Source of the DNA: an uncultured Akkermansia sp.
GTDB taxonomy: Bacteria > Verrucomicrobiota > Kiritimatiellia > RFP12 > JAAYNR01
Direction: 5' to 3'
DNA length: 64,000 nt
NCBI GenBank assembly: GCA_964506575.1
Contig: CAZDLY010000002.1
Span: 64,440-128,439 of the forward strand
Part shown: piece after piece, positions 12,156-29,448 of the stretch
Layout of the letters: each line of letters begins with the position of its first letter
How positions within the stretch are numbered: position 1 is the stretch's first letter
The notes under the pieces: generated by a model
Told to the model about the DNA's origin: nothing
The model's database searches: none
The model's input: the letters and a program-made list of their open reading frames with translations, nothing else
Translations under genes and position numbers: made by a program

Positions 12156-12171
12156 CGGCACACCCCTTGCT
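12156..12171 (+). promoter_or_regulatory. Sigma-54 (-24/-12) promoter match upstream of the histidine kinase/response regulator operon
   Basis: cGGCAC-ACCCC-TTGCT with GG-N10-GC spacing. The predicted TSS is near 12181, so the true kinase start may be the second Met at 12217. Confidence 0.55.
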
Positions 12172-12186
12172 GGATACGAGACACGC

Positions 12187-13542
12187 ATGGCCTTGACACG
12201 TCACATCGATAAGAGCATGCCTCGCCGCTCCTCGCTGGCGTGGCAGGCCTCCGCCATTCTGGCCTTTGCCGCCGTGGCGGCCGGTCTGGGGCTCTTTTGG
12301 CTTCATCGCTTTCAGGCGCACGTGGCCCATGTCGACGCGACCCGCTCGGTGCTTGCGCAGGGGGATCGGCTGATGGATCTGCTGGCCGACCCGGGCACTC
12401 TGGCGAACAGCACCAACATGACCGCCACTGAATGGCGCCTGTTTGGCGCGCATGTAGAGGGACTCCGCGCGGCGCAGGCCGAGTTGGAATTCGTCTCGAT
12501 CACGCATGGCGGCGAAACTGTCTTTCACCGGCAGATTCCCGATCGGTCACCGCATCCGCATGTGCCCGTGCCCTCCCGCACCTCCGTCTCGACCCTCAAC
12601 ATCCCCACCGGTCCGGACGCGACGACTCCGGTGATGGTCTTCACGCGAACCGTCATCCTTCCCGACCGGACCGAAGCGACTGTGGAGATCGGGTTTGACG
12701 CCGGGGTTGTCGACGCGGCCGAATCGAGCGCCTCGCGTTCAATCCGCACGCTCCTGCGCTTCTCAGCGGTCGCCGTCGCCGCCGCGTTTGGCTTTTGCCT
12801 GCTGCTGGTCATCGCCGTCGTCCGCCACGACCTGGCCCGGCAGGCGCGGGGCCGGCGCGAGGAGCACCTCGCCTTTTCGGGCGTCCTGGCCAATGGCATC
12901 GTCCACGATTTCCGCAATCCGATGTCCTCCGTGAAGCTCGACGCCCAGATGCTTGCCCGCGAGGCCGACCGCGATGGCGGGCCCCGCCCCGCGCGCCTGG
13001 CCGAGCTGGCCGGCCGCATCGGCCGCACCGTTGAACGGATGGATCAGGTGTTCAAGGAGTTCCTCTATCTGGCCAGACCCGATCACGAGGCGTTCGAGAC
13101 CGTCGCGCTGGCGGCGTGCATCCGCGAATGTGTCGAGACCCTCGCCCCGCGTCTCGAGGCGGCGGGCGTGGTGATTGAAGCCGCGCCCACGCCGCTGGGC
13201 GTCCGCGCCGCGCCATTTGCCCTGCGCCGCGCGCTCCTCAACGTGCTCACCAACGCCGTGCAGTTCTCGCCCCGCGGCGGCACGGTCGGGGTGGTCTGCG
13301 CGGCCCAGGGTTCGTCCGTCCGCATCGACATCGCCGACCGCGGCCCCGGCGTGCCGCCGCGCGACCGTGAGCGCATTTTTGAGATGTTTGTCTCGTCCCG
13401 CCCGGAAGGGACGGGTCTCGGCCTCTTCCTCGCCCGCACCGCCCTGCGCAAGTGCGGCGGCGACATCATCGCGCGGCCGCGGGAGGGCGGCGGCTCGATC
13501 TTCAGGATCACCCTCCCGGCCGGCACGGAGACCGCGTCATGA
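12187..13542 (+). CDS. Sensor histidine kinase (two TM helices, periplasmic sensor, HisKA + HATPase_c)
   Basis: H-box [13 protein letters not shown]-box [12 protein letters not shown] and G-boxes DRGPGV / GTGLGL. Two hydrophobic segments flank a ~150-aa presumed periplasmic domain. Confidence 0.85.
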
Positions 13543-14885
13543 AGCCTGTGATTCTGATTGTTGAAGATGACCCCGACGGCGCGCGCTCGATGATCGACGC
13601 CGCCGAGGACGCCGGGTTCGCGACCGTACTCGCCGGGACTGCCGCCAAGGGTCTCGAATGCTTCCGCGAGCAGACGCCCGACCTCGTGCTCACCGATCTC
13701 GTCCTGCCCGACTTCGACGGCATCGAGCTGCTGGCCCGGATCAAGCGGATCAACGCCGCGATCCCGGTGATGGTCATGACGGCGTACGGCTCGGTCGAGT
13801 CATCCGTCAAGGCGATGCGCGCCGGCGCCTATGACTACGTGATCAAGCCGCTCGACCTCGACGACATCCAGTCCAAGCTCCGACGGGCCGCCGAGACCAG
13901 CCGTTTGCGCCGCGAGGTCACCACGCTCGCCGCCTCGGCCCGCGCCCGGCACACCGCCGCGACGATGGTCGCCGAGTCGCCCGCCATGCGGGCGGTGATC
14001 AGCCAGATCGAGGCGCTGGCCGACACCACCGCGACGGTGCTGATCCAGGGCGAGTCCGGAACCGGCAAGGAACTGGTGGCCCGGGCGCTGCACGCCGACA
14101 GCCGGCGTGCCGACGCCCCCTTTGTCGCGGTCAACTGCGGCGCTTTTGCCGAGTCGCTCCTCGAATCGGAACTGTTCGGCCATGAGAAGGGCGCCTTCAC
14201 CGGCGCCGCCACCCGCCATGCGGGCGCCTTTGAACGGGCCGATGGGGGCACGCTCTTCCTCGATGAGATCGGCGACGCCCCGCCCTCTGTCCAGGTCAAG
14301 CTCCTCCGCGCCATCGAAGAGCGCGAAATCCACCGCGTCGGCGGACGCGAGCCCTTTGCCGTCAACGTCCGCCTCGTTTCCGCGTCCAACAAAGATCTGG
14401 CCGGGCGTGTCGCCGAGGGGGCGTTCCGCGAAGACCTGCTGTACCGGTTGAATGTCGTCACCATCTCCCTGCCGCCCCTTCGCCGCCGCCGGGAGGACAT
14501 CCGTCCGCTCGCCGACCGCTTCATCGCTCGCGCCGCCGCCGACCATGGCCATGCCATCACCGGGATCGATTCCGCCTTCTACACGCGGCTCGAAGCCTAC
14601 GACTGGCCCGGCAATATCCGCCAGCTCCGCAACGTCATCGAGTCGGCCGTCCTGCTCACCTCGGGCACCCACCTTCGCGCCGAGTCCCTCGCCCTTCCCG
14701 GCGATACCCTCCCCCGGGCCGCACCCGCCTTTCCGGAGAACCTCACACTCGCCGCCATCGAGCGCCTCGTCCTCGAACAAACCCTCGCCCGCTGCGACGG
14801 CAACCGCACCCTCACCGCGGAGAAACTCGGCATCTCCATCCGCACCATCCAGCGCAAGATCAAAGAACACAACCTTCCATTCTGA
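13539..14885 (+). CDS. Sigma-54-dependent response regulator (NtrC family: REC + AAA+ + Fis-type HTH)
   Basis: REC domain (ILIVEDDPD…[11 protein letters not shown]), Walker A GESGTGKE, the sigma-54 contact motif GAFTGA and a C-terminal HTH ([17 protein letters not shown]). The ATGA overlaps the kinase stop. Confidence 0.9.
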
Positions 14886-14894
14886 GTGATCCTG

Positions 14895-14910
14895 TGGCAT
14901 ACTTTCTGCT
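14895..14910 (+). promoter_or_regulatory. Sigma-54 (-24/-12) promoter match upstream of the ABC/Bat gene array
   Basis: TGGCAT-ACTTT-CTGCT with GG-N10-GC spacing, 45 nt upstream of the ABC ATPase ATG. A strong AAGGAG SD lies in the leader. Confidence 0.6.
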
Positions 14911-14954
14911 TTTTCAAATCCGTTGATTGATGTCCCCACGCAAGAAGGAGAATC

Positions 14955-15698
14955 ATGCTAACCGTCACGAACCTGAAGAAGAGCTTCGGCCCGTTTCAGG
15001 CAGTCAAGGGGGTGAGCTTCACCGTGAAAAAAGGTGAGGTGCTCGGCTTTCTTGGCCCCAACGGCGCCGGCAAGACCACCACGATGCGGATGATCACCGG
15101 CTTTCTGGCGCCCAGCGATGGCACAGCCGAGGTCTGCGGCTGCGATATCCGGCGGGATCCCGTCGGCGCCAAGCGGAGCATCGGCTATCTGCCCGAAAAC
15201 GCCCCGAGCTACCACGCGATGACCGTCGTGGACTTTCTCGACTTCGCCGCCCGCATCCGCGGCTACACCGGATCCGAACGGCGGGATCGCCTCGACCGGG
15301 CGATCGTTCAGGCGCGACTGGAGAGCGTCCGCGACCAGACGATCGAAACCCTCTCCAAGGGTTACCGCCAGCGCACCTGCTTCGCCCAGGCCATCCTGCA
15401 TGACCCGCCCGTGCTGATCATGGACGAACCGACCGATGGACTCGACCCGAACCAGAAATACGTGGTCCGGGAGATGATCCGCACCATGTCGGCCGAGAAG
15501 GCGATCATCATTTCGACGCACATCCTCGAAGAGGTGGACGCTGTCTGCACCCGCGCAGTGATCATCGCCAGCGGCGCGATCGTCGCCAACGGCACCCCGG
15601 CCGAGTTGAAGGCCCAGGACCCCTCCGGCCGCCTGGACGAGGTGTTCCGCAAACTGACCCTGACCGGAGAGGAGAAGACCCGCCATGTCCGTTCGTAA
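14955..15698 (+). CDS. ABC transporter ATP-binding protein (ABC-2 / GldA-like subfamily)
   Basis: Walker A GPNGAGKTT, signature LSKGYRQR and Walker B VLIMDEPTDGLD. Confidence 0.9.
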   Translation: MLTVTNLKKSFGPFQAVKGVSFTVKKGEVLGFLGPNGAGKTTTMRMITGFLAPSDGTAEVCGCDIRRDPVGAKRSIGYLPENAPSYHAMTVVDFLDFAARIRGYTGSERRDRLDRAIVQARLESVRDQTIETLSKGYRQRTCFAQAILHDPPVLIMDEPTDGLDPNQKYVVREMIRTMSAEKAIIISTHILEEVDAVCTRAVIIASGAIVANGTPAELKAQDPSGRLDEVFRKLTLTGEEKTRHVRS

Positions 15699-16422
15699 TA
15701 TCCAGACGCTTTTCCGGCGCGAGTTCCGGTCCTATTTTCATTCCCCGGTGGCCTGCGTGTTCCTGGTCGCCTTCCTGATCCTGGTGAATTTCCTGACCTT
15801 CCGCGTCTCGTCGTTCTACGAGGTTCGCCAGGCGTCGCTGGAGCGCTTCTTCATGTGGCACCCGTGGGTCTACCTGCTGCTCGTCCCCGCCTCGACGATG
15901 GGACTGTGGGCCGAGGAGCGCCGCACCGGAACGCTGGAGCTGCTGCTGACCTTTCCGGTTACGCTCACCGAGACGCTCATCGGCAAGTTTATGGCCGCCT
16001 GGGCGTTCATTGCGATCGGGTTGGCCTGCACCTTCCCGATCGTCCTCACGGTCGGCTGGCTCGGGTCGCCCGATTTCGGCGTGATCGCCAGCGGTTATGT
16101 CGGGTCACTGCTGCTCGCCGGGGCCAGTGTCGCCATCGGCGCCTTCGCCTCGTCGCTCACCCGCAGCCAGGTCATCAGCTTCGTTGCGGCGCTCAGCGCC
16201 TGCCTCCTGTTGACGCTCGCGGGATTCGAGCCGGTGACAGGGCTGTTTGCTTCGTGGGCGCCGTGGCTGGCCAACGCCATCGCCGCGTGCAGCCTCCTCT
16301 ATCACTTCAACGCCCTGTGCCGCGGCGTCCTCGACGTCGCCGACATCGCCTACTACCTGAGCGTGATCGTCTTCATGCTGGCCGCCGCGCACCTGGTCAT
16401 TGACAACCGCAAGGCGTCGTAA
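15685..16422 (+). CDS. ABC-2 type permease (GldF/NosY-like)
   Basis: 245 aa with about 6 hydrophobic helices. It overlaps the ATPase gene by 14 nt. Confidence 0.8.
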   Translation: MSVRNIQTLFRREFRSYFHSPVACVFLVAFLILVNFLTFRVSSFYEVRQASLERFFMWHPWVYLLLVPASTMGLWAEERRTGTLELLLTFPVTLTETLIGKFMAAWAFIAIGLACTFPIVLTVGWLGSPDFGVIASGYVGSLLLAGASVAIGAFASSLTRSQVISFVAALSACLLLTLAGFEPVTGLFASWAPWLANAIAACSLLYHFNALCRGVLDVADIAYYLSVIVFMLAAAHLVIDNRKAS

Positions 16423-16452
16423 CCCGTATCAACCCCTTTTTGGACAACTGCC

Positions 16453-18360
16453 ATGAATACCTTCAAACGAATCTCTTCCGGCGTCGCGGGTCTCGCACTG
16501 CTTCTGGTCAGTCTCGGCGGCGCGTGCGTGATCATCACCAACCTGCGCATCCGCGCCGACCTGACGGAGGAGCGGCTCTTCACCCTCTCCCGCGGTTCGC
16601 GCGACCTGGTCTCCAAGCTCGACCAGGACGTCACGCTGAAATTCTACTTCAGCACCTCCTCGTCTGAAGTTCCCAACATGATCAAGATCTATGCGCGTCA
16701 CGTGCAGGACTTTCTGCGTGAATACGAGTTGGCAGGAAAGGGCCGGGTCATCATCGAGACCTATGATCCCAAATCCGACTCCGACGAGGAGGAATGGGCG
16801 CAGAAATTCGGCGTGGCTCCTCAGACGCTCTCGCCCTTCGCGCCGCCGTTCTATTTCGGCCTGGTGGCCGTCTGCGGCGGGCGCGAGAATGCCATCCCGG
16901 CCTTCTCGCCCGCCACGGAGCGCACGCTGGAATTCGAGGTCTCACGCCTCATCGCCCGTGTCGCATGGCCCGAAAAACCGGTCATTGGCGTCATGAGCCC
17001 GTTCAGTGTCCTGGGCGGCGGCGACCCGATGCAACGGATGATGGGCCGCAACCGTCAGGCGGATCCGGCTTGGGCCGCCTTCGCCGAACTGCAACGCGAC
17101 TACACCCTTCGCGCAGTCACTCCCGATGCCGCCCGGATTGATGACGACATCACGACGCTGGTGCTGGTCCACCCGAAGAACCTGTCGAATCAGGCCCTCT
17201 TCGCCATCGACCAGTTTGTCCTCCGCGGCGGGCGCCTCCTGGCCTGTCTCGATCCCTTCAGCGTTCAGGACTTCAGGGCCTCCCAGGCACAGGGCCTGAT
17301 GATGAGCATGCAGGGACCTGCAGGCCCCGGCCCCTCCACGCTGGGCAAACTCCTGGATGCCTGGGGCGTCGGATTTGATCCTACCAAGGTTCTGGCCGAC
17401 ATGCGCGCCATCACCCGGCTCGATGGCGGAAACGGAAGCATTGATGAAAATCCCGTCGTGCTTTCCCTGTCCGCAAAGAACGCCGCCGCGTCCGAGGTCC
17501 TCACCGCCCAGCTCAAACAACTGATTTTTCCGTTTGCCGGCGTGTTCACGGAGAAGTCGGCCCCGGGGATCACCTATACGCCGCTGATCACGTCATCGGA
17601 CAACGCCTGCCTGGTCGACACGATGGCGGCCCAATATGGCACGGCCATGCTGCGCAACCAGCTTAAGCCCGACGGTCTGAAACACACACTGGCCGTCCGG
17701 TTGGCGGGTACATTCAAGACCGCCTTCCCCGCGGGCGCGCCGGCCGATGAGAACCCCGGCCCCGATGGCGCCAAAAAGCCTGCCGATCCGTCGCCGAAGC
17801 CCCCCCTGACTTCCGGTACGGGCGCCGTGGTGCTGATTGGCGATTCGGACTTCCTGGCCGACGGTTGGAGCGTGCGCACCTCCTCGTTCTTTGGATACCA
17901 GACCACCGAGGCGATTAATGACAACCTAGCCCTGCTGGCCAACGCGGTCGAGCAACTCGCCGGACGCAGCGAGCTGATCGCCATCCGCTCGCGCGGCAAT
18001 TCCACGCGCCCCTTCACGGTGGTTGACGAACTGGAATATCAGGCGCTCATGAAATGGAGCGAGACCGAGAAGGCTTTGCAGTTCAAGCTCGACGAGACGC
18101 GCGCCCGCCTCGCGGAGATGCAAAAGCAGAAGCAGGGCAAGCAACGCGCGATCCTCACGGCCGAGCAGGAAAAGGCCATTGCCACGTTTCAAGCGGAGGA
18201 ACGCAGCACCAACCGCCAGCTCAAGGACCTGCGCCGGTCGCTCAACGCCGACATCGAAAACCTGGGGGTTCGGGTGAAATCGATCAACATCGCGCTCATG
18301 CCCGCGCTGATTGTGGTGGCATCCTTCACACGGTTATGGATCCGCCGCCGTCGCGGCTAG
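16453..18360 (+). CDS. GldG-like ABC transporter auxiliary protein
   Basis: 635 aa with N- and C-terminal TM anchors and a large periplasmic domain. The position after the GldA/F-like pair is typical, and there is a coiled-coil segment before the last TM. Confidence 0.75.
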   Translation: MNTFKRISSGVAGLALLLVSLGGACVIITNLRIRADLTEERLFTLSRGSRDLVSKLDQDVTLKFYFSTSSSEVPNMIKIYARHVQDFLREYELAGKGRVIIETYDPKSDSDEEEWAQKFGVAPQTLSPFAPPFYFGLVAVCGGRENAIPAFSPATERTLEFEVSRLIARVAWPEKPVIGVMSPFSVLGGGDPMQRMMGRNRQADPAWAAFAELQRDYTLRAVTPDAARIDDDITTLVLVHPKNLSNQALFAIDQFVLRGGRLLACLDPFSVQDFRASQAQGLMMSMQGPAGPGPSTLGKLLDAWGVGFDPTKVLADMRAITRLDGGNGSIDENPVVLSLSAKNAAASEVLTAQLKQLIFPFAGVFTEKSAPGITYTPLITSSDNACLVDTMAAQYGTAMLRNQLKPDGLKHTLAVRLAGTFKTAFPAGAPADENPGPDGAKKPADPSPKPPLTSGTGAVVLIGDSDFLADGWSVRTSSFFGYQTTEAINDNLALLANAVEQLAGRSELIAIRSRGNSTRPFTVVDELEYQALMKWSETEKALQFKLDETRARLAEMQKQKQGKQRAILTAEQEKAIATFQAEERSTNRQLKDLRRSLNADIENLGVRVKSINIALMPALIVVASFTRLWIRRRRG

Positions 18361-18397
18361 ACAGTCAATCTGGAAAGTCAGGAGACACACACCAGCC

Positions 18398-19483
18398 ATG
18401 AAAAAAGCAAAACTGTTCGGACTTGTCCTCGCTGCCGTCGTCCTCGGGCTTCTGGCCTCGTGGACGGGGCGATCCCGTCAACCGCAAAAACCGGGGCAAC
18501 TCGGAAAACCCGTCCTGCCCGGCCTGTCAATCAACGCCATCGGGCGCATCGAGATCGCGCAGCAGAGCAAGACCGTCACACTGGCCAATACCGATGAGGG
18601 ATGGGTGGTGCCGTCGCTCTACAATTACCCGGCCGACGTCGCCAGGATTCGCGAGAACCTGCTCGCGCTTCGCGATCTCAAGATCGGAGCCGTGCAGCGG
18701 GGCGCCAGGATCGACAGCACCAATGCCACGCTCGTCGATCTCCAGGATGAACGCGGCAAACCGCTTGCCTCCATCCGTCTGGGCGATGTCCGCACCAGGC
18801 CCAACTCGCAATATGGATGGGACATTCCCGATGGCCGCTCGGTTGCGGCCAACGCCAACGACACGGTCTATCTCGTCAAGGAGTCGTTGAGCGCCTTTGA
18901 GCCCGATGCCAAGTCGTGGGTCAACACCGAGGTGTTGAACGTGCAGGCGTCGGACGTCGCCCGGGTCGTGCTATCGGGTCCGGACGGCGCGGCGACCCTG
19001 GATCGTTCGTCGGGTGCGCTTACGCTCACCGGGCTTGCCGAAGGCGAATCCTGCGACGCCTCAAAAGTGTCCGGCGTCGCGTCCGCCCTGGGCTATCTCC
19101 GGTTTTCCGATCTCGCCGACCCCGCGCTCACCGATGCGCAGACCGGCGTGGCCACGGGCCACACCTTCACCGTGACCACCACCGACGGGACGATCTATGC
19201 CGCCCGCATCGGCGCCGCCGCGCCGGACCGCAGCGACCGTTATCTCCGGATCGCCGTCAGCGCGCAGCCGGTCTCCACCAACGCCGCCGAGCGGGCGTCG
19301 GTGACGCAGCAGGCGGCCGAGCTCAACCGATCGGTCAGCCCCTGGCTCTTTCTGATCTCTTCCTGGAACGCCGACAACATGACCCGTTCCCGCGCCTATT
19401 TCATCCAGGCTCCCACGCCGCCCCCCGCATCACCGGAGCCTCCGCCCGAACGCGCTCCCGAGGTGCCCGCCGCCGGATCCTGA
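18398..19483 (+). CDS. DUF4340-like secreted/anchored protein
   Basis: MKKAKLFGLVLAAVVLGLLASW signal/anchor with GGAG upstream. The position downstream of gldG is typical of DUF4340. The C-terminal tail is Pro-rich. Confidence 0.55.
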   Translation: MKKAKLFGLVLAAVVLGLLASWTGRSRQPQKPGQLGKPVLPGLSINAIGRIEIAQQSKTVTLANTDEGWVVPSLYNYPADVARIRENLLALRDLKIGAVQRGARIDSTNATLVDLQDERGKPLASIRLGDVRTRPNSQYGWDIPDGRSVAANANDTVYLVKESLSAFEPDAKSWVNTEVLNVQASDVARVVLSGPDGAATLDRSSGALTLTGLAEGESCDASKVSGVASALGYLRFSDLADPALTDAQTGVATGHTFTVTTTDGTIYAARIGAAAPDRSDRYLRIAVSAQPVSTNAAERASVTQQAAELNRSVSPWLFLISSWNADNMTRSRAYFIQAPTPPPASPEPPPERAPEVPAAGS

Positions 19484-19545
19484 TGTGCGGACGGGCCTCG
19501 TGCCCGCCCCCGATTACCGCCACCCTCCAACCCCAAAGGCCCGCC

Positions 19546-20529
<984 letters not shown>

Positions 20530-20579
20530 TCCCCAGCATCCAGTTTCAGGTTTCCAGTTCCCGGTTTCCAATCTTTTCC

Positions 20580-21470
20580 ATGCTCGACACCGCCCAACTC
20601 ATGGCCCAGGTCGCCGGCATCCGCATCCTCACGACGCGGCTGCTGGATGACCGGCTTTCGGGCGATTACCACTCGGTCTTCAAGGGCCGGGGGATTGAGT
20701 TTGACGAAGTGCGTCCGTACATCCCCGGCGACGATGTGCGCGCGATCGACTGGAACGTCACCGCACGCACCGGCCACCCGCACATCAAACGGTTTTCGGA
20801 GGAGCGTGAACTGACGATTGTTTTTCTCGTCGATGTCTCCGGCTCGCAGGTGTTTGGCTCCGCCACCCGCACCAAGTCGGAACTGGCCGCCGAAATCACC
20901 AGCCTCCTCGCCATGACCGCCATCCGCAATCAGGACAAGATCGGCTGCATCCTCTTCAGCGACCGCATCGTCAAATCCATTCCGCCGCGCAAGGGACGCA
21001 CCGCCGTGATGCGCCTCGTACGCGAGGTGCTCGCGGCGGGCGAAACCCGCCACGGCACCGACATCGCCGGCGCCATCCGCTTTCTCAACAACGTTCAGAA
21101 GCGCCGCGCCGTGGTCTTCATCGTCTCCGACTTTCAGGACTCCGGCTTCGACCGCGCCCTGCGCGCCCTCGCCCGCCATCATGACGTGATCGCTTGCCCC
21201 GTCTCCGATCCGCGCGAGTCGGCGCTGCCCAATGTCGGCCTCGTCCAGATGCAGGATCCCGAGACGGGCGAGTTGGTCATCGTGGATACCGCATCGCGCG
21301 CCGTCCGGGAGGCCTTCGCCGCCGAGGCGTCGACCGCTGATGCCGAGCTGCATCGCAACCTGCGGCGCTGGGGCATCGATACGCTTGATGTGTCCACCGG
21401 GCGCCCCTACATTGACGACGTCCGCGCCCTCTTCCAGCGTCGGCGCGCCCGCGCCAGGAGGTCGGCATGA
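20580..21470 (+). CDS. DUF58 (VWA-like) protein, MoxR partner
   Basis: GDYHSVFKGRGIEFDEVRPYIPGDDVRAIDWNVTAR is the hallmark DUF58 motif. Confidence 0.85.
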   Translation: MLDTAQLMAQVAGIRILTTRLLDDRLSGDYHSVFKGRGIEFDEVRPYIPGDDVRAIDWNVTARTGHPHIKRFSEERELTIVFLVDVSGSQVFGSATRTKSELAAEITSLLAMTAIRNQDKIGCILFSDRIVKSIPPRKGRTAVMRLVREVLAAGETRHGTDIAGAIRFLNNVQKRRAVVFIVSDFQDSGFDRALRALARHHDVIACPVSDPRESALPNVGLVQMQDPETGELVIVDTASRAVREAFAAEASTADAELHRNLRRWGIDTLDVSTGRPYIDDVRALFQRRRARARRSA

Positions 21471-22420
21471 ACACCCCCGGCCGTGTGTTCCGTGCCTGTG
21501 CCGTTGCCGGCGCGCTCGCCGCACCCTGCGTCCGCGCCGCATTCACCGCCGATCTCTCCTGGGGCGACGTCTCGCTCATTCTCGCCGCCGAGTCCGATGC
21601 CGTCGATCCCTCGCGCGATTTCTTGCTGACCCTCGTTCTCACCACGCCGCCCCACCTGACGGTCGCGCTGCCCGATCTGCGCGGTCGTTTCTCCGGATTC
21701 TCCACCGCCGAAGATCTGGCCCGTGATCCGGTCATCACGCCGGACGGTGTCCGCCGCGAATTCCGCTGGCGGCTGGTCCCCGAACTGGAGCGCGAATACC
21801 GGCTGGCGCCGTTTGCGGTGACCGTCACCGACACCCGCCGCGTGCCGGCGCTGGTCAGCGCCTTCGCCACCCGCGCGGTCTACTTCCCCGCCGCCGCGCG
21901 CGCGCCCAAAGCCGACGGCGACCTCGAACTCGCTGCAAAACCGGTTTACGTCGCCCCCTCCGCCCGCACCGTCACCGGCTGGGTGTTCATCGGCCTGGCC
22001 GCGGCTGCCCTGCTGGCGGCCGCGCTGTGGGGTCTGGCCCATGTCAAACGCCGCGTCCGCGAAGCGCGCCTGTCCCCCGGCGAACGGGCGCTCGCCGAGT
22101 TGGAGCGTCTCCTCCGCCGCCGGCTGGTCGAAAAGGGGCTTTACAAGGATTTCTACATTGAACTCACCGGCGTTGTCCGGCGTTATATCGAGCGGACGCA
22201 CGGCATCCACGCCCCCGCTCAAACCACCGAGGAGTTCCTCAAGGCCGCCGTGTCGCACCCGGCTTTCGCCGCCGCGACACTCGGTCCGCTCCGGGATTTT
22301 CTGGAATCGGCCGACCTGATTAAATTCGCCGGTCAAACGGCCACGCCGGCCCTGGCCGATGCGGCCGTCTCGGCGGCGCGTTCATTTGTGATGGTACCAT
22401 GCGCTTCGCCTGCCCCATAG
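21467..22420 (+). CDS. Secreted domain + TM + DUF4381-like cytoplasmic tail
   Basis: Signal-like N-terminus, a central TM (WVFIGLAAAALLAAALWGL) followed by KRRVREARL…ALAELERL…TTEEFL…ADLIKFAG. That pattern matches what I recall for DUF4381 in Bat operons. Confidence 0.55.
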   Translation: MNTPGRVFRACAVAGALAAPCVRAAFTADLSWGDVSLILAAESDAVDPSRDFLLTLVLTTPPHLTVALPDLRGRFSGFSTAEDLARDPVITPDGVRREFRWRLVPELEREYRLAPFAVTVTDTRRVPALVSAFATRAVYFPAAARAPKADGDLELAAKPVYVAPSARTVTGWVFIGLAAAALLAAALWGLAHVKRRVREARLSPGERALAELERLLRRRLVEKGLYKDFYIELTGVVRRYIERTHGIHAPAQTTEEFLKAAVSHPAFAAATLGPLRDFLESADLIKFAGQTATPALADAAVSAARSFVMVPCASPAP

Positions 22421-23445
22421 TTGTTCTCCTGTTCATTCCCTGGCTCATCGCTGTCTGGCGCCTTTACCGCCGCAGCGAGCGGGCTGGGGTGCTCTTTGCG
22501 CCGATCCGGCGGCTGCCGGTCCGGACGGCGGGCTGGCGCGTGTGGACATCGCGCATGCTGCCGGCGCTGTTTCTCGCCGGAGTCGCGTTGCTCATCATCG
22601 CCGCCGCGCGTCCCCAGACGTTCATCGCCCGCGAACGCCGCACGGTCGATGCGATCGCCATCGCCATGACCGTGGACGTGTCGGGCTCGATGGAGGCGCT
22701 CGATCTCTCGCCGCGATCGGCCCTGGGCGTTGTGACCGAGAAGACGCGTCTCGATGTCGTGAAGGAGACCTTTGCCGAATTCATCCGCCAGCGCCCCGAC
22801 GACCTGCTCGCCCTCATCACCTTCGGGGGCTATGCCTCGACCCGGAGTCCCCTCACCGCCGACCATCGCGCGCTGCTTCACGTTTTGAACGGGGTGAAAA
22901 TTCCCACCGCCGACATGGACGATCAGGGCCGTCCGGTTTCTCAGGAGGAAATGCTCACCGCCATCGGCGACGGACTGGCCACGGCCTGCGCCCGCCTCAC
23001 CGACGCCGAGCCCAAAACCCGGATTGTTGTCCTGCTGAGCGACGGCGAATCCAACACGGGCATCATCACGCCGGAACAGGCCGCCGGGGCGGCCAAGAAA
23101 CTCGGCATCCGCGTCTACACCATCGGCGTCGGCAGCACGGGCCGCGCCCCCTTCCGCACCCGTGACGTATTCGGTCGCTCGGTCATCGGATGGGGCGAGG
23201 TGAGTCTGGACGAGACCCAGCTCCGCGCCATCGCCAGCGCCTCGGGCGCCCGCTATTTCAACGTGCGCGATCCCGGCGGCCTTAAGACGGCCCTCGACGA
23301 GATCGGCCGTTTGGAAACCACCCGCGTCGACCGCCAGATCCTGATGCGGTATCACGAATGGTTTGTGTGGCCCCTCCTCGCCGGCGCGATGCTCGTTTTT
23401 GCCGCGCTCACGCTCGGCATGCTTACCCTCCGGAGGCTGTTATGA
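22399..23445 (+). CDS. batA: BatA-like von Willebrand factor A domain membrane protein
   Basis: N-terminal TM pair, VWA MIDAS DVSGSM, and a C-terminal TM. Confidence 0.8.
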   Translation: MRFACPIVVLLFIPWLIAVWRLYRRSERAGVLFAPIRRLPVRTAGWRVWTSRMLPALFLAGVALLIIAAARPQTFIARERRTVDAIAIAMTVDVSGSMEALDLSPRSALGVVTEKTRLDVVKETFAEFIRQRPDDLLALITFGGYASTRSPLTADHRALLHVLNGVKIPTADMDDQGRPVSQEEMLTAIGDGLATACARLTDAEPKTRIVVLLSDGESNTGIITPEQAAGAAKKLGIRVYTIGVGSTGRAPFRTRDVFGRSVIGWGEVSLDETQLRAIASASGARYFNVRDPGGLKTALDEIGRLETTRVDRQILMRYHEWFVWPLLAGAMLVFAALTLGMLTLRRLL

Positions 23446-25994
23446 TTCGATTCGTTCAGCCTTATCTGTTGCTGCTGCTGTCGCTCATCCCGTTGGCGGG
23501 ACTCGCCTGGTGGTGGGCCGCCGCCCGTGCCGAGGCGCGCCTGGCCGATCTCGTCGCACCTGCGCTCCAGTCGCGCCTCCTGCCGCCGCGCTCACGCGCG
23601 CGCACCCTCGCGCAGATCATCCTGGCGCTCGCCGCCCTGATCCTGCTCACCGTCGCCGCCGCCCGTCCCCAGTGGGGCCGTCGCACTGAAACGGTCTTCA
23701 CCCGCGGCAGCAACCTGCTTATCGCCCTCGATGTTTCCCGCTCCATGCTCGCCAGTGACGTCCACCCCAACCGCCTCGAGCGCGCCAAGGTCGACATCCT
23801 CGACCTGATCGCTGAGCTCAAGGGCGACAACGCCGGCCTGCTGGCCTTCCGCCGCAGGGGCGTCCTGCTCTGTCCGCTGACCACCGACTACTCGTTCTTG
23901 CGGCAGGCGATCGACGGCGTCTCCCCCGAATCCGCTCCGCGGGGCGAGACCGACCTCGCCGATGCGATCAAGAAATCGATGGAGGCCCTGGAGGGAATGC
24001 CCGACGATCATAACGCGATTCTCCTGATTTCCGATGGCGAGGAACTCACCGGTGATGCCGCGGCCGCCGCCCGCGAAGCCGGAAAACGCCGCATCCCGAT
24101 ATTCACGGTCGGCATCGGCGACCCGGCCGGCGCCAGCATCCCCGGCGATTCCGGCGCCGATTCCCTCCGCTTCCAGGGCCAGGTGGTGCGGACCCGCCTC
24201 ATGGACGCAACCCTAGCGGTGATCGCCCGCGAGTCTGGAGGCTCCTACATTCCGCTCGCCACCGCCGGGACCGCCCACACCACCCTGGGCGCAATCTATC
24301 GCCGCCACCTCCGTAACATCTCCGCCCGGGAGAACCGGGAGACGCTCGAAAATCAGCACGTCGAGCGCTACCTCGTCTTTCTGCTGCCCGCCATCCTCTC
24401 GTTCATCGCCGCAGCCTGCCTCTCGCGCGGCCGCCTCGCCGGCGCCCGGATCCGCCCCCCGGCCAGGCCCCCCGCCGCCCGTGCACTCGCCCTGCTCGCG
24501 GCCCTGACCCTCTCGTGCGGCGCACGCGCCGGCGATACCGCCACCGCGCCGACCAACGCCGCGGGACCCAATGAGACGGTCACGCTGCCCGGAGGCCGCG
24601 ACACGGCCCGTCGCGCTCAGGCGCTCCTGCGCCGGGGGCGCTACGAGGAGGCAGCCGCCGCCTTCGTTGCAGCCGCCCGCAGCGCCGACACCGAAACCTC
24701 CGCCGCCTGGCTCTACAACGCCGCGCTCGCGTGGATCAAGGCGGGCAAACCGAACGAAGCGGACGCGCTTCTGCGCCCCCTCACCCAGTCGCGAACCGTT
24801 GGCCCGCGTGCGGCCGAACTCCTCGGGTCGGTCGCCCTCGACCAGTCACGCGCCATCAAGGAGGGGGAGGGCGCCGACGTCCGGGTCACCCACCTCGAGA
24901 CCGCCGCATCCGCGCTTCAGACCGCCTTGCGTGAAACGCCCGACGACCCCCGCCGCATCCGCAACCTCTCCCGTGTCGCCCCCGCCCTTCCCGACGCCCG
25001 CGAAAACGCGCACATTGAATCGGTGCTGAAAGCCAACCCCAAGCCTCAACCGGATTCCCTGCTGGAAACCCTCTTCCGCGGGCAGCGGGCGCTGCTTGAT
25101 GAAATCCCGGCCGTTTTCACCAACGAGGCCCCGCGCCTGATCACCGCCGCCGAGGCGCTGGCCGCCCGGCAGCAGACAGCGGGCGACCTCCTTATCCCGC
25201 TCAAGCGCGTGCTTCTCGAATCGGGCGCGATCACCAACGAGCAACAGCGCGCCGCCCTGGCCGCGACGTTCGAGACCGCCCGCGACGCCCTGCGCGACTC
25301 CACCCGCAAGCTGCGCGACATCGATCCGTCGGCGCTGAAGGATGTGGCCAAGATCGAGCCTTTTGCCTACGCCCTCTGGAAGCAGCTCGCCGCCCCGCCG
25401 CCGCTGGTCGGCGAGGCGATCACCACGCAGTCCAACGCCCTCGATTCAGCCGCGCAGCGCCCGATCCGTCCGCCGCAGCCCGAGTCGCTGTCCCTCACCC
25501 GGCTCTTCCGGGAGCGCTTTCCCGAATGGGCCGATCAGGTTCAGCAGCAGGCCCAGGCAGATACCAACGCCCCGACCCTCACACCTGAGGCTCGCGCCGA
25601 GATCGAGCGGCTCGCAGAAGAGACCGAACGGCTGCAGACCGAGGCCCTGCGCTCGCAGGTGCCGCGTCCCCACCAGCAGCAGGCGCTCGAGAAGCTCATG
25701 CGCATCCGCGAATTGCTCCCTAAAAATCCACAGTCGGGATCTTCCGGCCAGCCGCCGCCCCAGCCGCAGCCGCAGTCAGACCCCAAGCCATCGGATTCAA
25801 AAGATCCGCCGCCTCCGCCCGAGAAGAAAGAGCAAGAAAGCCCCAAGCCCGAGGATCAGAAGAAGCCGCCGCCGCCGCCGCAGGATGTCCAGGAGATGCT
25901 CCGCCGAGCCCTGGAACGGGAGAAAGAGCAGGACGAGCGCAAACGCGAGCAGATGCGAAACCTCCCCATGTCGCCCTCTGAACGGGACTGGTGA
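23442..25994 (+). CDS. BatB-like VWA protein fused to a BatC-like TPR region, with a long helical and Pro/Lys/Glu-rich tail
   Basis: N-terminal TMs, MIDAS ALDVSRSM, a TM after the VWA domain, then TPR-like repeats (GRYEEAAAAF…AWLYNAALAWIKAGKPNEA). The C-terminus is PPPQPQPQSDPKPSD…KKPPPPPQ. The ATGA overlaps the batA stop. Confidence 0.75.
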   Translation: MIRFVQPYLLLLLSLIPLAGLAWWWAAARAEARLADLVAPALQSRLLPPRSRARTLAQIILALAALILLTVAAARPQWGRRTETVFTRGSNLLIALDVSRSMLASDVHPNRLERAKVDILDLIAELKGDNAGLLAFRRRGVLLCPLTTDYSFLRQAIDGVSPESAPRGETDLADAIKKSMEALEGMPDDHNAILLISDGEELTGDAAAAAREAGKRRIPIFTVGIGDPAGASIPGDSGADSLRFQGQVVRTRLMDATLAVIARESGGSYIPLATAGTAHTTLGAIYRRHLRNISARENRETLENQHVERYLVFLLPAILSFIAAACLSRGRLAGARIRPPARPPAARALALLAALTLSCGARAGDTATAPTNAAGPNETVTLPGGRDTARRAQALLRRGRYEEAAAAFVAAARSADTETSAAWLYNAALAWIKAGKPNEADALLRPLTQSRTVGPRAAELLGSVALDQSRAIKEGEGADVRVTHLETAASALQTALRETPDDPRRIRNLSRVAPALPDARENAHIESVLKANPKPQPDSLLETLFRGQRALLDEIPAVFTNEAPRLITAAEALAARQQTAGDLLIPLKRVLLESGAITNEQQRAALAATFETARDALRDSTRKLRDIDPSALKDVAKIEPFAYALWKQLAAPPPLVGEAITTQSNALDSAAQRPIRPPQPESLSLTRLFRERFPEWADQVQQQAQADTNAPTLTPEARAEIERLAEETERLQTEALRSQVPRPHQQQALEKLMRIRELLPKNPQSGSSGQPPPQPQPQSDPKPSDSKDPPPPPEKKEQESPKPEDQKKPPPPPQDVQEMLRRALEREKEQDERKREQMRNLPMSPSERDW

Positions 25995-28186
25995 AGCGTA
26001 TGAGAGCGAAGCCGGCACATCTTATTTCGATCATGTCGATCCTATCGATCCTATCGACTTCAACCGCCTTCGCTCAGCCGATCTCCCTCACGGTCCGGCC
26101 AGACCGTGACCGCATCTTGGTGGATGAGCCCTTCCGCATCACGCTGGCCATCGCCATCGCGCCGCTTCCGCCGCCCTATCACGACATCGAGCCGATCCAC
26201 GTCAACCGCCCGCCGCGCCTGGAGGCCGATTTCTTAACGATCGCGGACATCAAGGGATTGCAGCAACCGGATATCCGGGCCTTTCTTGAAGCGCGCGCGC
26301 GGGCCGCATCCGGTCGGCAGCCCTCTTTCCTGATCAACAACTATGCCGATTTCTTCCAGAATCCCGCCCGCTTCCGCCTCGACCCCCTCCGTGAAAAACG
26401 GGGCGGCACGAACCTCTGGGTCTACGCCCAGGAATTCACCTACACGCCTCAGGCCGAAGGCGACTACACCTTCGGCCCCATGATCTTCAAGGGCGCGGTC
26501 ATTACCGGGGTGAATCCGGATAAGAGTGCCCGGATCGAGGAGATATTCGCCGTCGCCCCGGCGGTCACCGTTCGTGTCACACCCCCGCCGGAGACTGGGC
26601 GCCCCGCGTGGTTCATCGGCACCGTCGGACGCAACCTGACGGCCCATGCGGGCTTCGACACCGATGTCTGCAAGGTCGGCGACCCGCTCACCCTCACGCT
26701 CGACCTGACCGGCGCCATCAGCCTCTCCAATCTCCGTCCGCCGCTGCTCGCACTGCAGGAGGAGTTGACCCGCGACTTCCGCATCTACGACGACAACGTC
26801 ACAACAACCGCGATTGAATCGGGAAAACGGTTCACCTGGCGCGTCCGACCCATCCGGGCCGGAACGCTCGAGTTTCCGCCCATTCGCGTCGCCTACTACG
26901 ACACGGCCTTGAAATCCTATCAGACCGTCTCGACGCAGCCCATTCCCATCCAGGCGCGGGCCACCACGCAGGTGGTCAGCGATGCGCCGGAAACACCGGG
27001 TTCCGCGAGTCTCTTCCTCCGCTCCGACAACGCGCCCGTGCCTGCGGCCGCCACCCTGTCGGACGTCCCCTCGCCGCTCCTCCCTCCCGCCCGGCTGCTG
27101 CTTCCGCTTTTTCTGTCCGGACCTGCCGTTCTGCTGCTCGCGGTCACCGGCCGGTCCCTCTGGCGTCGTCGCGACATCCGGCGCCTGGCGCGCCATCGCC
27201 ACCGCGCCGCCGCCCGCGCCCGGCGCCGCCTCGCCGACGCTTCAGCGCCCGGCGCCGCGGCCGCCGTGCTCCGCGACTATCTCACGGATCGTCTCGCGGC
27301 AACCGGTCATTCGCTGACGCCCCCGGAGGCCTGTCGGCTTCTCGTCGCCAACGGCGTTTCGGACCGGCAAGCCGACGCCTTCCGCGCCCTGCTCGAGCGT
27401 CTCGACGAAGCCCTCTACCGGCCTGGCGCCGAAGGCGGGGCTTCGGCCCAGGAGGCGGCCGCCCTCCTCGCCGCCATCGAGGCTGCGCTTGCCGGCCGTC
27501 GGCGGCGGGCGGGCGACAACCTCTCGATAGTGTCGATAGTGTCGATAATCTCGATATCCTTTCCCGTTTTCGCCTCCGAACCCTCATCGATCGCGTTCGG
27601 CTGGGAACGGGCCAACGCCCGTTTCGCCGCCGCCCATTCACCCGGGGATTTTCTTGAGGCCGCCCGGATCTACAACCGCCTGGTCCTCGATGGCGACACC
27701 CGCGGCGCGCTGTTCTACAACCTCGGCACGGCGCTGCTGCTCGCCGGTGACGCTCCCAACGCCATTGCGGCGCTGAATCGCGCCGAACGCCGTCTCGGCG
27801 CGACCCCCGCCTCCCGCGCCAACCTGCGCCTCGCGTACGGTTTGCTGGATGCGCCGCCGGCCACCGATGACGCGCCGCAGACGCTCCCGATGTCGCTCGC
27901 ACCCCCCGCCCCGCTCCCGTGGACCCATGCCGCATTTTTCTGGCATTATGAATTCCCCTGCCGCCACCGGGCCGGCGCGGCCGCGGCGGGGTGGGCGATT
28001 CTTTTCGCCGGCCTCCTCCTCCGGCTGCTCCGCCCCGCCGCCGCACGTCCCCTGCTGTGGGCCGGCCTGTTTCTCTTCACCGTCTTTGGCGCGAGCGCCG
28101 CCATCACCCTGCTTCAGGAATACCATGACAGCCGTTCCTGGCCCACGCGCGTCTTCACCAGCAACGGCGGGGAGGTCGCTTCATGA
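25991..28186 (+). CDS. BatD-like protein fused to a TPR / multi-TM C-terminal module
   Basis: Signal peptide …LISIMSILSILSTSTAFA-QP and BatD hallmark PAWFIGTVGRNLTAHAGFDTDVCKVGDPLTLTLDLTG. A TM with an Arg-rich segment follows. A second signal-like segment RRRRAGDNLSIVSIVSIISISFPVFA-SE comes next, then TPR-like repeats and C-terminal TMs. Confidence 0.7.
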   Translation: MKRMRAKPAHLISIMSILSILSTSTAFAQPISLTVRPDRDRILVDEPFRITLAIAIAPLPPPYHDIEPIHVNRPPRLEADFLTIADIKGLQQPDIRAFLEARARAASGRQPSFLINNYADFFQNPARFRLDPLREKRGGTNLWVYAQEFTYTPQAEGDYTFGPMIFKGAVITGVNPDKSARIEEIFAVAPAVTVRVTPPPETGRPAWFIGTVGRNLTAHAGFDTDVCKVGDPLTLTLDLTGAISLSNLRPPLLALQEELTRDFRIYDDNVTTTAIESGKRFTWRVRPIRAGTLEFPPIRVAYYDTALKSYQTVSTQPIPIQARATTQVVSDAPETPGSASLFLRSDNAPVPAAATLSDVPSPLLPPARLLLPLFLSGPAVLLLAVTGRSLWRRRDIRRLARHRHRAAARARRRLADASAPGAAAAVLRDYLTDRLAATGHSLTPPEACRLLVANGVSDRQADAFRALLERLDEALYRPGAEGGASAQEAAALLAAIEAALAGRRRRAGDNLSIVSIVSIISISFPVFASEPSSIAFGWERANARFAAAHSPGDFLEAARIYNRLVLDGDTRGALFYNLGTALLLAGDAPNAIAALNRAERRLGATPASRANLRLAYGLLDAPPATDDAPQTLPMSLAPPAPLPWTHAAFFWHYEFPCRHRAGAAAAGWAILFAGLLLRLLRPAAARPLLWAGLFLFTVFGASAAITLLQEYHDSRSWPTRVFTSNGGEVAS
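26037..26068 (+). repeat. Intragenic 9-bp tandem repeat (TCGATCNTN x ~3.5) encoding (S-I-x)n
   Basis: tcgatcatg tcgatccta tcgatccta tcgac; it contains three GATC sites. Confidence 0.8.
27524..27559 (+). repeat. Intragenic 9-bp tandem repeat (TCGATANNN x 4) encoding (S-I-x)n
   Basis: tcgatagtg tcgatagtg tcgataatc tcgatatcc; it uses the ATA Ile codon, which looks atypical for this GC-rich backbone. Confidence 0.8.
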
Positions 28187-29448
28187 TATCCACCTTCCGT
28201 CTTCTCCAGGTGCTTGGCCTGGTCCTCGTCATTCCCGCCAGTGCTCGGGCCCAGATCCAGCAGGCCACGCTGCGATTTGATCCGTCGACACCCTTTGTCG
28301 GGCAGCCTTTCACCCTGACACTGGACGTCGCGGTCAACCCCGGCGTCGAACTGGAGAATCTGAATATTGAGGGATTGCCCGATGCTTCGCATGCCCGTTT
28401 TGTCAACTTCGCGGCCGCCGGACGCCAGGTTCTCCGCCCCGGCGGCGGCCGCGCGGCCGATGTCCTGCGTTACACGGCTGAAGGCCGGGCCACGCACGCC
28501 TTCGTCACGACCGTCTCGTGCATGCTGCACGGGCAGGTCGTTGAGCGGGTCTCCCTGGGCTTCTTTTCTCAAATGCGTTCCGTCCCGTTCTCCTGCCGCA
28601 TCTCGTCGGCCCGGCTCGACGTCCGCGACCTGCCCAGTCAGGACCGTCCGGCCGGTTTCTCCGGTGCGATCGGGAGATTCACACTCTCCGGTGACGCCTC
28701 GCCGCGGACGGTTGCGCCTGGCGATCTCGTGACGCTCTCATACACGCTCACTGGAAGCGGCTGGCTGGCCGACGCCGCTCTGGTGCCACCCGATCCCGGA
28801 TCCGGTTTCAAGACCTATCCCGCGCAAGAGACCGCGCGGGAGGCCAGTCCGCCGCGCCTGTCGATCCGCCAGGTTGTGATTCCCCTCTCCACCAATGCCG
28901 CCGTCGTGGCCGGGCCCCGCTTTGTCTATTTCGATCCCGACGCCGTCGCCTACCGCACGGCGACGATCGAGCCTTTCCGTCTCACCTTTGCCCAGACCAC
29001 GACGACTGAACCGGCCATCCGCCGGATCGACGCCATGCCCGCCACGGGTCCCGCCGATGCGGACCTGGCCCGGCCATCCGAGTTCGCGCTGGCCGAGGCC
29101 GTCGCCAAGTTCCGCCAATTGATCCCCCTGGCAGCCGCGCTCCTTCTTGCGGCGGCTGTCACCGCCATGCTCTTTCGCGTCCGCCGCATCCCCGCCGTGA
29201 TCGTCGGCATCCTCATTCTCGCACTCGGCGTCGCCGCGTCGCGCCGCTTCAGCCGGGCCGCCGAGGCGCAGGCGCTCAAGGTGGACGGATCGGTTACCGC
29301 CCGGCTCGCACCCTCCGAGCGCGCGCTTCCCCTCTTCGACCTCCATCCGGGATCCTTCGTCCTCCCCCTGGAACACACCCCCGGCTGGGTGCGTGTCCGT
29401 TCCGCCGACCGCGAAGCCTGGATACCCGTGACGAGCGTGACGAAATAG
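28183..29448 (+). CDS. BatD-like protein with C-terminal TM and SH3-like domain (BatD/BatE-like)
   Basis: Signal peptide …VIPASARA-QI and BatD hallmark DRPAGFSGAIGRFTLSGDASPRTVAPGDLVTLSYTLTGSG. Two TMs follow, and the C-terminal TPGWVRVRSADREAWIPVTSV resembles a bacterial SH3 domain. Confidence 0.65.
   Translation: MISTFRLLQVLGLVLVIPASARAQIQQATLRFDPSTPFVGQPFTLTLDVAVNPGVELENLNIEGLPDASHARFVNFAAAGRQVLRPGGGRAADVLRYTAEGRATHAFVTTVSCMLHGQVVERVSLGFFSQMRSVPFSCRISSARLDVRDLPSQDRPAGFSGAIGRFTLSGDASPRTVAPGDLVTLSYTLTGSGWLADAALVPPDPGSGFKTYPAQETAREASPPRLSIRQVVIPLSTNAAVVAGPRFVYFDPDAVAYRTATIEPFRLTFAQTTTTEPAIRRIDAMPATGPADADLARPSEFALAEAVAKFRQLIPLAAALLLAAAVTAMLFRVRRIPAVIVGILILALGVAASRRFSRAAEAQALKVDGSVTARLAPSERALPLFDLHPGSFVLPLEHTPGWVRVRSADREAWIPVTSVTK

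Follow-up and report, generated by a model that had tools for sequence, protein, structure and literature searches.

A GldAFG-like ABC-2/DUF4340 cassette joined to a MoxR-DUF58-Bat cluster behind a sigma-54-type promoter in Kiritimatiellia: a conserved and separable linkage

Few bacterial gene sets of unknown mechanism are as widespread as the GldAFG-like ABC-2/GldG/DUF4340 cassette and the MoxR-DUF58-Bat cluster, and here we describe an array of eleven genes in which the second directly follows the first. It lies in a 64,000-nucleotide stretch of DNA (the window) from a freshwater bacterium, an uncultured Akkermansia sp. placed by GTDB in the Kiritimatiellia (GCA_964506575.1, contig CAZDLY010000002.1, positions 64,440 to 128,439), and the closest genomes to the window are Kiritimatiellia metagenome-assembled genomes (MAGs). 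Bat clusters are reported to stand alone in Bacteroides, Leptospira and Borrelia (PMC3557215, PMC5700661), and the study of the Leptospira bat genes reported no clear phenotype (PMC3557215). The Borrelia protein BB0173 is a VWA inner-membrane protein whose gene lies beside MoxR and whose VWA domain is periplasmic (PMC5700661). DUF4340 is a predicted subunit of ABC/GldG-type transporters (SAR11 preprint 10.64898/2025.12.11.693642), and in Verrucomicrobium spinosum one essential protein belongs to the DUF4340 family (PMC12283558). Archaeal operons combine a GldG-homologous ectodomain protein (DUF4350, arCOG01314) with a COG0714 MoxR ATPase and a vWA protein, for which Makarova, Galperin and Koonin predicted in 2015 a secretion or membrane-remodelling complex (PMC5898192).

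With moderate confidence, we read the array as an old, lineage-specific operon fusion within an envelope-responsive sigma-54 regulon. An earlier reading of the window, made from the sequence only, had put forward the linkage of the two halves as the novelty. This was overstated, since the archaeal operons were described in 2015 and the pairing of a GldG-like ectodomain protein with MoxR and vWA is thus not a new idea. What does appear new is the version with an ABC transporter, DUF4340 and a full Bat set behind a sigma-54 promoter, conserved across a class, on which we found no paper; our literature search likewise found no published gldG-moxR or DUF4340-Bat linkage, nor any on Kiritimatiellota aerotolerance.

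The array and its conservation among relatives

The eleven genes lie on one strand from 14955 to 29448, in DNA of about 65% G+C, and are listed here with the distance of each to the gene before it (negative values are overlaps, in nucleotides, nt).

14895..14910, +, sigma-54-type promoter TGGCATACTTTCTGCT, heading the array
14955..15698, +, ABC ATPase, GldA-like (Pfam ABC_tran); a GGAG ribosome-binding site precedes the ATG
15685..16422, +, ABC-2 permease, GldF-like (Pfam ABC2_membrane_2); multiple transmembrane (TM) helices; -14 nt
16453..18360, +, GldG-like auxiliary protein (Pfam DUF7088 and ABC_transp_aux, 5.6e-49 and 8.6e-20); +30 nt
18398..19483, +, DUF4340 protein, N-terminally anchored (Pfam 7.9e-15); +37 nt
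19546..20529, +, MoxR-type AAA+ ATPase, cytoplasmic (Pfam AAA_3 6e-64, AAA_lid_2); +62 nt
20580..21470, +, DUF58 protein, VWA-like, cytoplasmic (Pfam DUF58 2e-76); no TM helix; +50 nt
21467..22420, +, DUF4381-family membrane protein, 317 amino acids (aa); single central TM helix, residues 173-191; -4 nt
22399..23445, +, BatA-like protein (Pfam VWA, VWA_2); two N-terminal TM helices, VWA domain, C-terminal TM helix; -22 nt
23439..25994, +, BatB-like protein (Pfam VWA_2 7.8e-20); TM helices and weak TPR matches; -7 nt
25991..28186, +, BatD-like protein (PF13584 6.4e-11, 43 bits against a cut-off of 24); alternative start at 26000; -4 nt
28183..29448, +, last gene, 421 aa, in the BatE position; sub-threshold Pfam matches only (BatD 0.024, SH3_3 0.21); -4 nt

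The evidence for the linkage comes from 80 related loci (L001-L080), which were gathered with a DUF4340 profile and onto which the window proteins were mapped by tblastn. The seed of the profile was the narrower of two DUF4340 alignments (A2), the diverse one (A1) being unusable for want of a conserved stretch. A further 80 metagenomic loci, from a scan with Verrucomicrobiota-type DUF4340 proteins, served as an outgroup. The order ABC ATPase, permease, GldG, DUF4340 is invariant in every related or outgroup locus that extends over the four genes. MoxR stands directly after DUF4340 in 43 of 74 informative Kiritimatiellia loci, window included; the adjacency recurs widely among relatives, and in these it is frequently closer than in the window. 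What follows MoxR is usually DUF58, DUF4381, BatA, BatB and BatD, in the same order as in the window.

A neighbour-joining tree of GldG, read for the history of the linkage, has the linked state on its deepest branches (L070 and L071-L079), at which identity to the window is about 30% for DUF4340 and about 43% for GldG. The unlinked state is confined to at least two or three nested groups: a large clade consisting mostly of gut, rumen and faecal MAGs (L041-L069), the L030-L062 group, which has retained the sigma-54 promoter, and L068. As the linked state spans the deepest branches and the unlinked groups are nested, the join is old, with a minimum of two or three losses. It is also specific to this Kiritimatiellia lineage; a protein search with GldG returned solely close Kiritimatiellia relatives among the matches listed (the best 120), which gives no view of other phyla. 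Throughout the L041-L069 clade the DNA upstream of the ABC gene lacks the sigma-54 motif, and the promoter class appears to have switched along with the loss of the Bat half. Several members of that clade (L050, L051 and L069) carry TGGTATAAT at this place, which is of the extended -10 type, TGnTATAAT.

Within the window, open reading frames (ORFs) and Pfam assignments agree with what the sequence-only reading had described, namely eleven same-strand genes of the domain content listed above, six overlaps of 4-22 nt and a widest gap of 62 nt. The number of overlaps is five or six, because the choice of start codon varies between gene calls: on an identical public contig (Joint Genome Institute sample 3300044990, 101 kb) the independent calls are the same except that BatB starts one codon later (overlap of 4) and the BatD-like protein at 26000 (gap of +5). 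The earlier claim that the array holds no obvious terminator hairpin also stood. A terminator scan gave 8 weak, mostly intragenic candidates, below the 10.5 expected from shuffles, with none at a junction; sigma-70 and terminator consensus scans found nothing relevant within the array; and folding of 19470-19560, 20515-20595, 18345-18410 and the promoter region showed no structure beyond shuffles. A weak stem-loop at 19487-19511 is considered below.

Most of the products are predicted to be membrane proteins. A simple hydropathy scan placed TM helices in 9 of the 11 and listed the ABC ATPase, MoxR and DUF58 proteins as soluble. The ABC-2/GldG(ABC_transp_aux)/DUF4340 order is seen with Pfam domains above gathering thresholds. 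Against the NCBIfam equivalog models for gliding (TIGR03522, TIGR03518 and TIGR03521), the ABC ATPase matches GldA best, with 261 bits for a cut-off of 403, the permease reaches 175 bits against GldF (cut-off 289) and the auxiliary protein 75 bits against GldG (cut-off 390). Since these scores lie far under the equivalog cut-offs, we call the first three genes GldAFG-like and not gliding orthologues. The GldG-like protein has TM anchors at its N- and C-terminus, with a large ectodomain and a coiled-coil stretch between. An AlphaFold2 model of the DUF4340 protein (mean pLDDT 89) shows a mixed alpha/beta ectodomain, for which a comparison with the PDB gave no meaningful match (best E=0.01, TM-score <0.2); with no solved structural relative, the fold gives no functional lead.

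In the second half, the 317-aa protein by itself has no significant Pfam match, and DUF4381 is recognised in 9 of 16 orthologues (best 2.4e-6); its profile found no match among solved structures. DUF4381 proteins typically hold this position in Bat-type clusters. The two VWA proteins, BatA-like and BatB-like, have VWA domains above threshold and a 2+1 pattern of TM helices. The BatA N-terminal domain is sub-threshold in the first (E=0.0031), which scores 134 bits against NCBIfam BatA (cut-off 380), and the second, with 78 bits against BatB (cut-off 350), ends in a long Pro/Lys/Glu-rich tail after its TPR repeats. As for BatC and BatE, TPR matches are weak and lie inside BatB, and SH3_3 reaches just E=0.21 in the last gene. 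That gene encodes a weak BatD-like N-terminal part, two TM helices and a weak SH3-like C-terminus, and is conserved in L001, L002, L018, L025, L045 and L072.

The BatD-like protein contains two near-identical signal-like segments, the N-terminal ISIMSILSILS and LSIVSIVSIISIS at residues 511-529, the second of which is followed by a TPR-like stretch. In several relatives its tblastn match falls into two pieces. It is probably a fusion of two once-separate secreted proteins, BatD and a BatC-like part.

The sigma-54 promoter and a candidate regulon

The promoter TGGCATACTTTCTGCT begins 9 nt past the stop of an upstream gene for an enhancer-binding protein (EBP), which ends at 14885, and ends 44 nt before the ATG of the ABC ATPase at 14955. 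It matches TGGCAC-N5-TTGCT at 9 of the 11 specified positions. Though the bare pattern GG-N10-GC is uninformative in the window (1161 matches vs 1092 expected), TGGCAY-N5-YTGCW occurs twice where 0.29 matches are expected, and YGGCAY-N5-YTGCW five times where 0.79 are, with three of these five falling in 12008-14910. Among the relatives, the strict motif TGG[CT]A[CT]-N5-[CT]TGC[AT] is present in 30 of 63 windows of 300 nt upstream of the ABC gene, compared to 0.18 expected from the background rate of the motif over 1.2 Mb of the related loci; versions with a single mismatch add a few further loci. The conserved core is GACAnnnTGGCAYnnnnnYTGCTA, and it persists although loci have different flanking DNA and even different upstream genes. 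We consider the promoter to be genuine because the motif is kept across relatives whose flanking DNA has diverged. The sequence-only reading had placed a third sigma-54 promoter match just after the EBP gene and ahead of the ABC ATPase; the position is confirmed and its status as a promoter is borne out by this conservation. Expression of the array would thus be expected to depend on sigma-54.

The other two promoters lie upstream, around genes for a small heat-shock protein, a sensor kinase and the EBP.

11394..11978, -, membrane-anchored small heat-shock protein, divergent from the kinase-EBP genes; N-terminal TM helix, residues 21-39, and C-terminal Hsp20/alpha-crystallin domain
12008..12023, -, sigma-54-type promoter TGGCACATATTCTGCT for the small heat-shock gene
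12068..12101, no strand, palindromes GACAAGATGTC and GACAAAATGTC, 23 bp apart; candidate EBP binding sites (upstream activating sequences)
12156..12171, +, sigma-54-type promoter CGGCACACCCCTTGCT before the kinase-EBP genes (autoregulation)
12187..13542, +, sensor histidine kinase (Pfam HisKA, HATPase_c); TM helices at residues 21-39 and 194-212
13539..14885, +, NtrC-type response regulator and EBP (Response_reg, Sigma54_activat 3.7e-70, HTH_8)

The kinase TM helices flank a predicted periplasmic domain of about 150 aa, and the EBP is composed of a receiver (REC) domain, an AAA+ domain and a Fis-type helix-turn-helix, with an intact GAFTGA readable in the translation. Directly upstream of the kinase, the sigma-54 motif is found in 14 of the 15 kinase-bearing loci scanned (window included), and the equivalent minus-strand motif in 10 other kinase-bearing loci. 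Orthologues of the small heat-shock protein, of about 180 aa, stand behind a like promoter in 9 other loci. The Pfam HSP20 match of the window protein alone is weak (E=0.005); HSP20 is recognised in 6 of 9 orthologues (best 5.6e-6), and the profile matches solved small heat-shock proteins with E=2.4e-7. As to the kinase gene, CGGCACACCCCTTGCT ends just 15 nt before the annotated ATG, which leaves two readings: an mRNA with almost no leader, or a true start at the next Met codon, 12217.

The two palindromes at 12068-12101 sit between the divergent small heat-shock and kinase promoters. Exact GACA-N3-TGTC sites number only three in the whole window, all in 11157-12101, and paired sites of the form GCGnCA-N5-TGnCGC, a consensus read by eye from the kinase-locus sequences, occur in all 11 of the kinase loci examined, with a spacing of 23 bp where checked. 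The palindromes are good candidates for EBP binding sites. A degenerate search of the window with GCGNCA-N5-TGNCGC, allowing 2 mismatches, gave 99 matches vs 85 expected and is non-discriminating in GC-rich DNA, and the k-mers common to both promoter upstream regions included none longer than the promoter core.

The third GACA-N3-TGTC palindrome, GACAGGATGTC at 11157-11167, overlaps the start of a 68-aa ORF (11163-11369) that lies just after parB and that the gene calls of the identical public contig include as well. It could be a further target of the same regulator, or chance.

The kinase-EBP pair lies directly upstream of the array in 17 loci belonging to several clades, and from this adjacency it is reasonable to suppose that the neighbouring two-component system activates the array promoter. 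We infer that the pair, the small heat-shock gene and the array form an envelope or proteostasis stress regulon. In Synechococcus PCC 7002 under CO2 stress a DUF4340 gene rises along with hspA and clpB (PMC12789804), which offers weak circumstantial support for stress induction.

The two remaining matches to YGGCAY-N5-YTGCW, at 49242-49257 (-) and 55237-55252 (-), fall inside a glycosyltransferase island elsewhere in the window. Between 40000 and 62000 the G+C content drops from about 65% to 44-55%, and the genes are mostly glycosyltransferases (GT1/GT4, GT2 and GT8), together with several large proteins without Pfam matches. This segment is probably a surface-polysaccharide island, possibly acquired horizontally.

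One transcript or two, and what the linkage may mean

Whether the array is a single unit depends largely on the junction between DUF4340 and MoxR, its widest gap, where one feature is to be noted.

19487..19511, +, weak imperfect GC-rich stem-loop without a U-tract (about -12.8 kcal/mol), just past the DUF4340 stop

This region folds no better than shuffles. The DUF4340-to-MoxR gap, taken over 42 loci, is 64 nt in the median and -16 at its smallest. In L009, L010, L014 and L019 the stop of DUF4340 and the start of MoxR share the letters ATGA (L009 was checked by eye), and several other relatives have gaps of 0-13 nt. Such overlapping or tight junctions are strong evidence of co-transcription in those relatives, in some of which the two halves would also be translationally coupled. 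Sigma-54 and extended -10 motifs are absent from the junction in 41 of the 42 loci, window included. An independent promoter or terminator between 19483 and 19546, which would speak for two units, thus finds nothing convincing in the scans beyond the weak stem-loop. As relatives have 4-nt overlaps and the 62-nt gap of the window carries no promoter or terminator signal, we infer read-through, and hence co-transcription of the window array across the junction.

The mechanism that we propose runs as follows. A membrane kinase with a periplasmic sensor domain, as judged from its domains, would phosphorylate the NtrC-type EBP, which would activate sigma-54 RNA polymerase at three conserved promoters, those of the small heat-shock gene, of the kinase-EBP genes and, by adjacency, of the array. 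Transcription would run from 14895-14910 through the DUF4340/MoxR junction, where in many relatives a stem-loop probably lowers or stabilises the transcript, so that the two halves are made in different amounts. The first half would supply an ABC-2 transporter of GldAFG-like type together with the ectodomain proteins GldG and DUF4340; in the second, a MoxR/DUF58 chaperone pair would mature or remodel the membrane VWA proteins BatA and BatB, plus BatD. Both halves would serve one envelope-maintenance or surface-assembly process, and it is because of this shared process, we propose, that they are kept under one promoter.

Several observations weigh against this account. The ABC cassette occurs without MoxR-Bat beside it in 31 Kiritimatiellia loci, and in all 36 outgroup loci whose downstream sequence reaches at least 1.5 kb (in 20 of them at least 5 kb) the cassette is not followed by MoxR, DUF58 or Bat genes. 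Nor is the array inviolable, since L033 and L034 carry, between MoxR and DUF58, some 6 kb of unrelated housekeeping genes on the same strand (L034:5900-12000), encoding a methyltransferase, a GDT1/rubrerythrin protein, an HtrA-like protease, MnmE, a 6-phosphogluconolactonase-like protein and a D-Tyr-tRNA deacylase; MoxR remains attached to the ABC/DUF4340 cassette there, and the DUF4340/MoxR junction survives. Nine MoxR-linked loci are without a recognisable sigma-54 motif, and in many relatives the ABC sigma-54 promoter persists with no EBP gene next to it. No palindrome resembling the EBP sites was found near the ABC promoter at 14895, upstream of which lies the EBP coding region; the candidate sites are about 2.8 kb away. 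At the junction, 23 of the 29 relatives with a DUF4340-MoxR gap of 40-350 nt (79%) hold a hairpin of -12 kcal/mol or stronger. Finally, the bat genes of Leptospira are reported to have independent internal promoters (PMC3557215). The earlier placing of the array under the neighbouring two-component system stands, then, as far as the 17 adjacent loci and the two sigma-54 promoters of that system go, but not as regards an EBP site at the ABC promoter, and that promoter is often kept without the adjacent EBP. The single unit of about 14.5 kb proposed from the sequence is likewise upheld by an adjacency that is old and widespread and by the 4-nt overlaps, but qualified by the separability of its modules, the junction stem-loops and the split in L033 and L034.

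The separability bears most directly on an explanation in which the two cassettes are functionally independent and merely adjacent, sharing strand and promoter since both envelope functions are useful in like conditions, with no joint pathway or complex. This we hold to be unlikely, though deserving of serious weight. The solitary ABC cassettes (36 of 36 informative outgroup loci as well as the 31 in Kiritimatiellia) fit it well, as do the lone Bat clusters of Bacteroides, Leptospira and Borrelia and the splitting of the array by housekeeping genes. It is also in keeping with the strong terminators that follow DUF4340 where this is the last gene, and with the persistence of hairpins there in linked loci. 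However, mere adjacency would hardly be expected to hold over a divergence as deep as that of GldG and DUF4340 among the linked loci, or to come with overlapping or 0-13 nt junctions in several lineages. Nor does it account for MoxR staying with the ABC cassette in L033 and L034 while DUF58 and BatA move off, or for a separate association of GldG-like, MoxR and vWA proteins in archaea.

A second explanation takes the junction stem-loop to be a working terminator, so that there are two transcription units, with the promoter of the MoxR-Bat genes unrecognised in the 3' end of DUF4340 or in the 62-nt gap. The stem-loops do recur at this junction in relatives (for instance in the regions L020:10087-10230 and L012:4183-4272), our scans could miss a promoter because the housekeeping sigma consensus of Kiritimatiellia is not established, and the internal promoters of the Leptospira bat genes give a precedent. 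We nevertheless regard this as improbable. The hairpin of the window is weak and has no U-tract. The true terminators of this group, found in loci that end with DUF4340, are strong hairpins and often carry T-runs. Moreover, just about 33 nt separate the window hairpin from the MoxR ATG, and the overlapping genes of relatives leave no space for a terminator and a promoter. The stem-loops of the relatives, mostly stronger than that of the window and the chief argument for two units, are GC-rich, come right after the DUF4340 stop, are non-homologous in sequence and have no U-tracts. Stem-loops are also found in 64% of the GldG-DUF4340 gaps of 40-350 nt, and at 7-41% of the other array junctions. 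Expression of the array may thus be segmented, with the junction stem-loops setting unequal levels of the two halves by partial termination or by protection of mRNA 3' ends.

Short tandem or inverted repeat arrays were also seen in intergenic DNA of the relatives: at L072:976-1386, where GATTAA/GATTAG runs form a long inverted repeat, upstream of the ABC gene in L010 and L008, with repeated CGACTAAGTGT units in the former, and in the DUF4340-MoxR gap of L035 and L039.

That the first four genes are true GldA/GldF/GldG orthologues serving gliding or type IX secretion, with the Bat half as an accessory, is scarcely credible and was rejected: GldA, GldF and GldG are indeed the best NCBIfam matches, but all three scores lie under the cut-offs, the same DUF4340 four-gene cassette is common in Planctomycetes-Verrucomicrobia-Chlamydiae (PVC) bacteria and elsewhere, and the annotated parts of the 64-kb window hold no other gld, spr or type IX secretion genes.

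If the array is, as we favour, an old fusion within a sigma-54 regulon, it represents a guilt-by-association clue and not a new kind of system. It predicts that both halves act in the same envelope process, and it supplies candidates for pairwise interaction screens together with a defined promoter and activator to manipulate, though the organisms carrying it are mostly uncultured. That the exporter and the MoxR/VWA proteins form one physical machine is speculation; by analogy with the periplasmic VWA domain of BB0173, contacts between the GldG/DUF4340 ectodomains and VWA domains would be topologically possible. A broader and quite doubtful version makes GldG-type ectodomains (GldG, DUF4350) and MoxR-DUF58/VWA proteins general partners, which with DUF4340 and the Bat proteins would build a single machine spanning the envelope, for assembly or export, with power from the ABC ATPase and maturation by the AAA+ chaperone. 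Were this true, the Kiritimatiellia fusion and the archaeal operons would show one principle, and the long-missing roles of the Bat operon and of the GldAFG-like transporters would be explained.

Comparison with known systems

For the regulatory part, the nearest likeness is with the sigma-54/EBP stress regulons of Escherichia coli, namely Psp (PspF-pspA) and the ibpB small heat-shock promoter. As there, an EBP is found beside divergent sigma-54 promoters that drive stress proteins of the membrane or of proteostasis, a small heat-shock protein among them. The window EBP differs in being a phosphorylation-controlled NtrC-type protein with its own kinase, PspA has no homologue here, and the set of targets is another.

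The first half of the array is the GldAFG-type, or ABC-2/GldG/DUF4340, cassette, with the same four genes as all the related and outgroup loci. Its proteins are not the Flavobacterium equivalogs, however, the context is not one of gliding, and the cassette is extended by seven MoxR/Bat genes.

The archaeal operons share with the array a GldG-homologous ectodomain protein accompanied by MoxR and vWA/DUF58, with most components membrane-bound or extracellular. Two close homologues of the GldG-like protein also carry a DUF4350 match (PF14258). The archaeal operon is without the ABC transporter, DUF4340 and BatA/BatB/BatD, and has instead Ig-like and S-layer-type partners, of which (arCOG02884 and relatives) none was found by Pfam in the window array. 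Homology between the archaeal and Kiritimatiellia linkages is unproven, and the likeness may reflect convergence.

The closest match to the second half is the Bat cluster of B. fragilis, Leptospira and Borrelia (BB0170-BB0176), which has the same order of MoxR, DUF58, a small DUF4381-type protein, TM-anchored BatA and BatB, TPR and BatD, and which is, like the array, envelope-associated with its mechanism unexplained. In the window, BatB bears the TPR part and a low-complexity tail, the BatD-like protein looks fused and the gene in the BatE position is sub-threshold. The setting also differs: the window copy is fused 3' of an ABC-2/GldG/DUF4340 cassette and stands behind a sigma-54 promoter.

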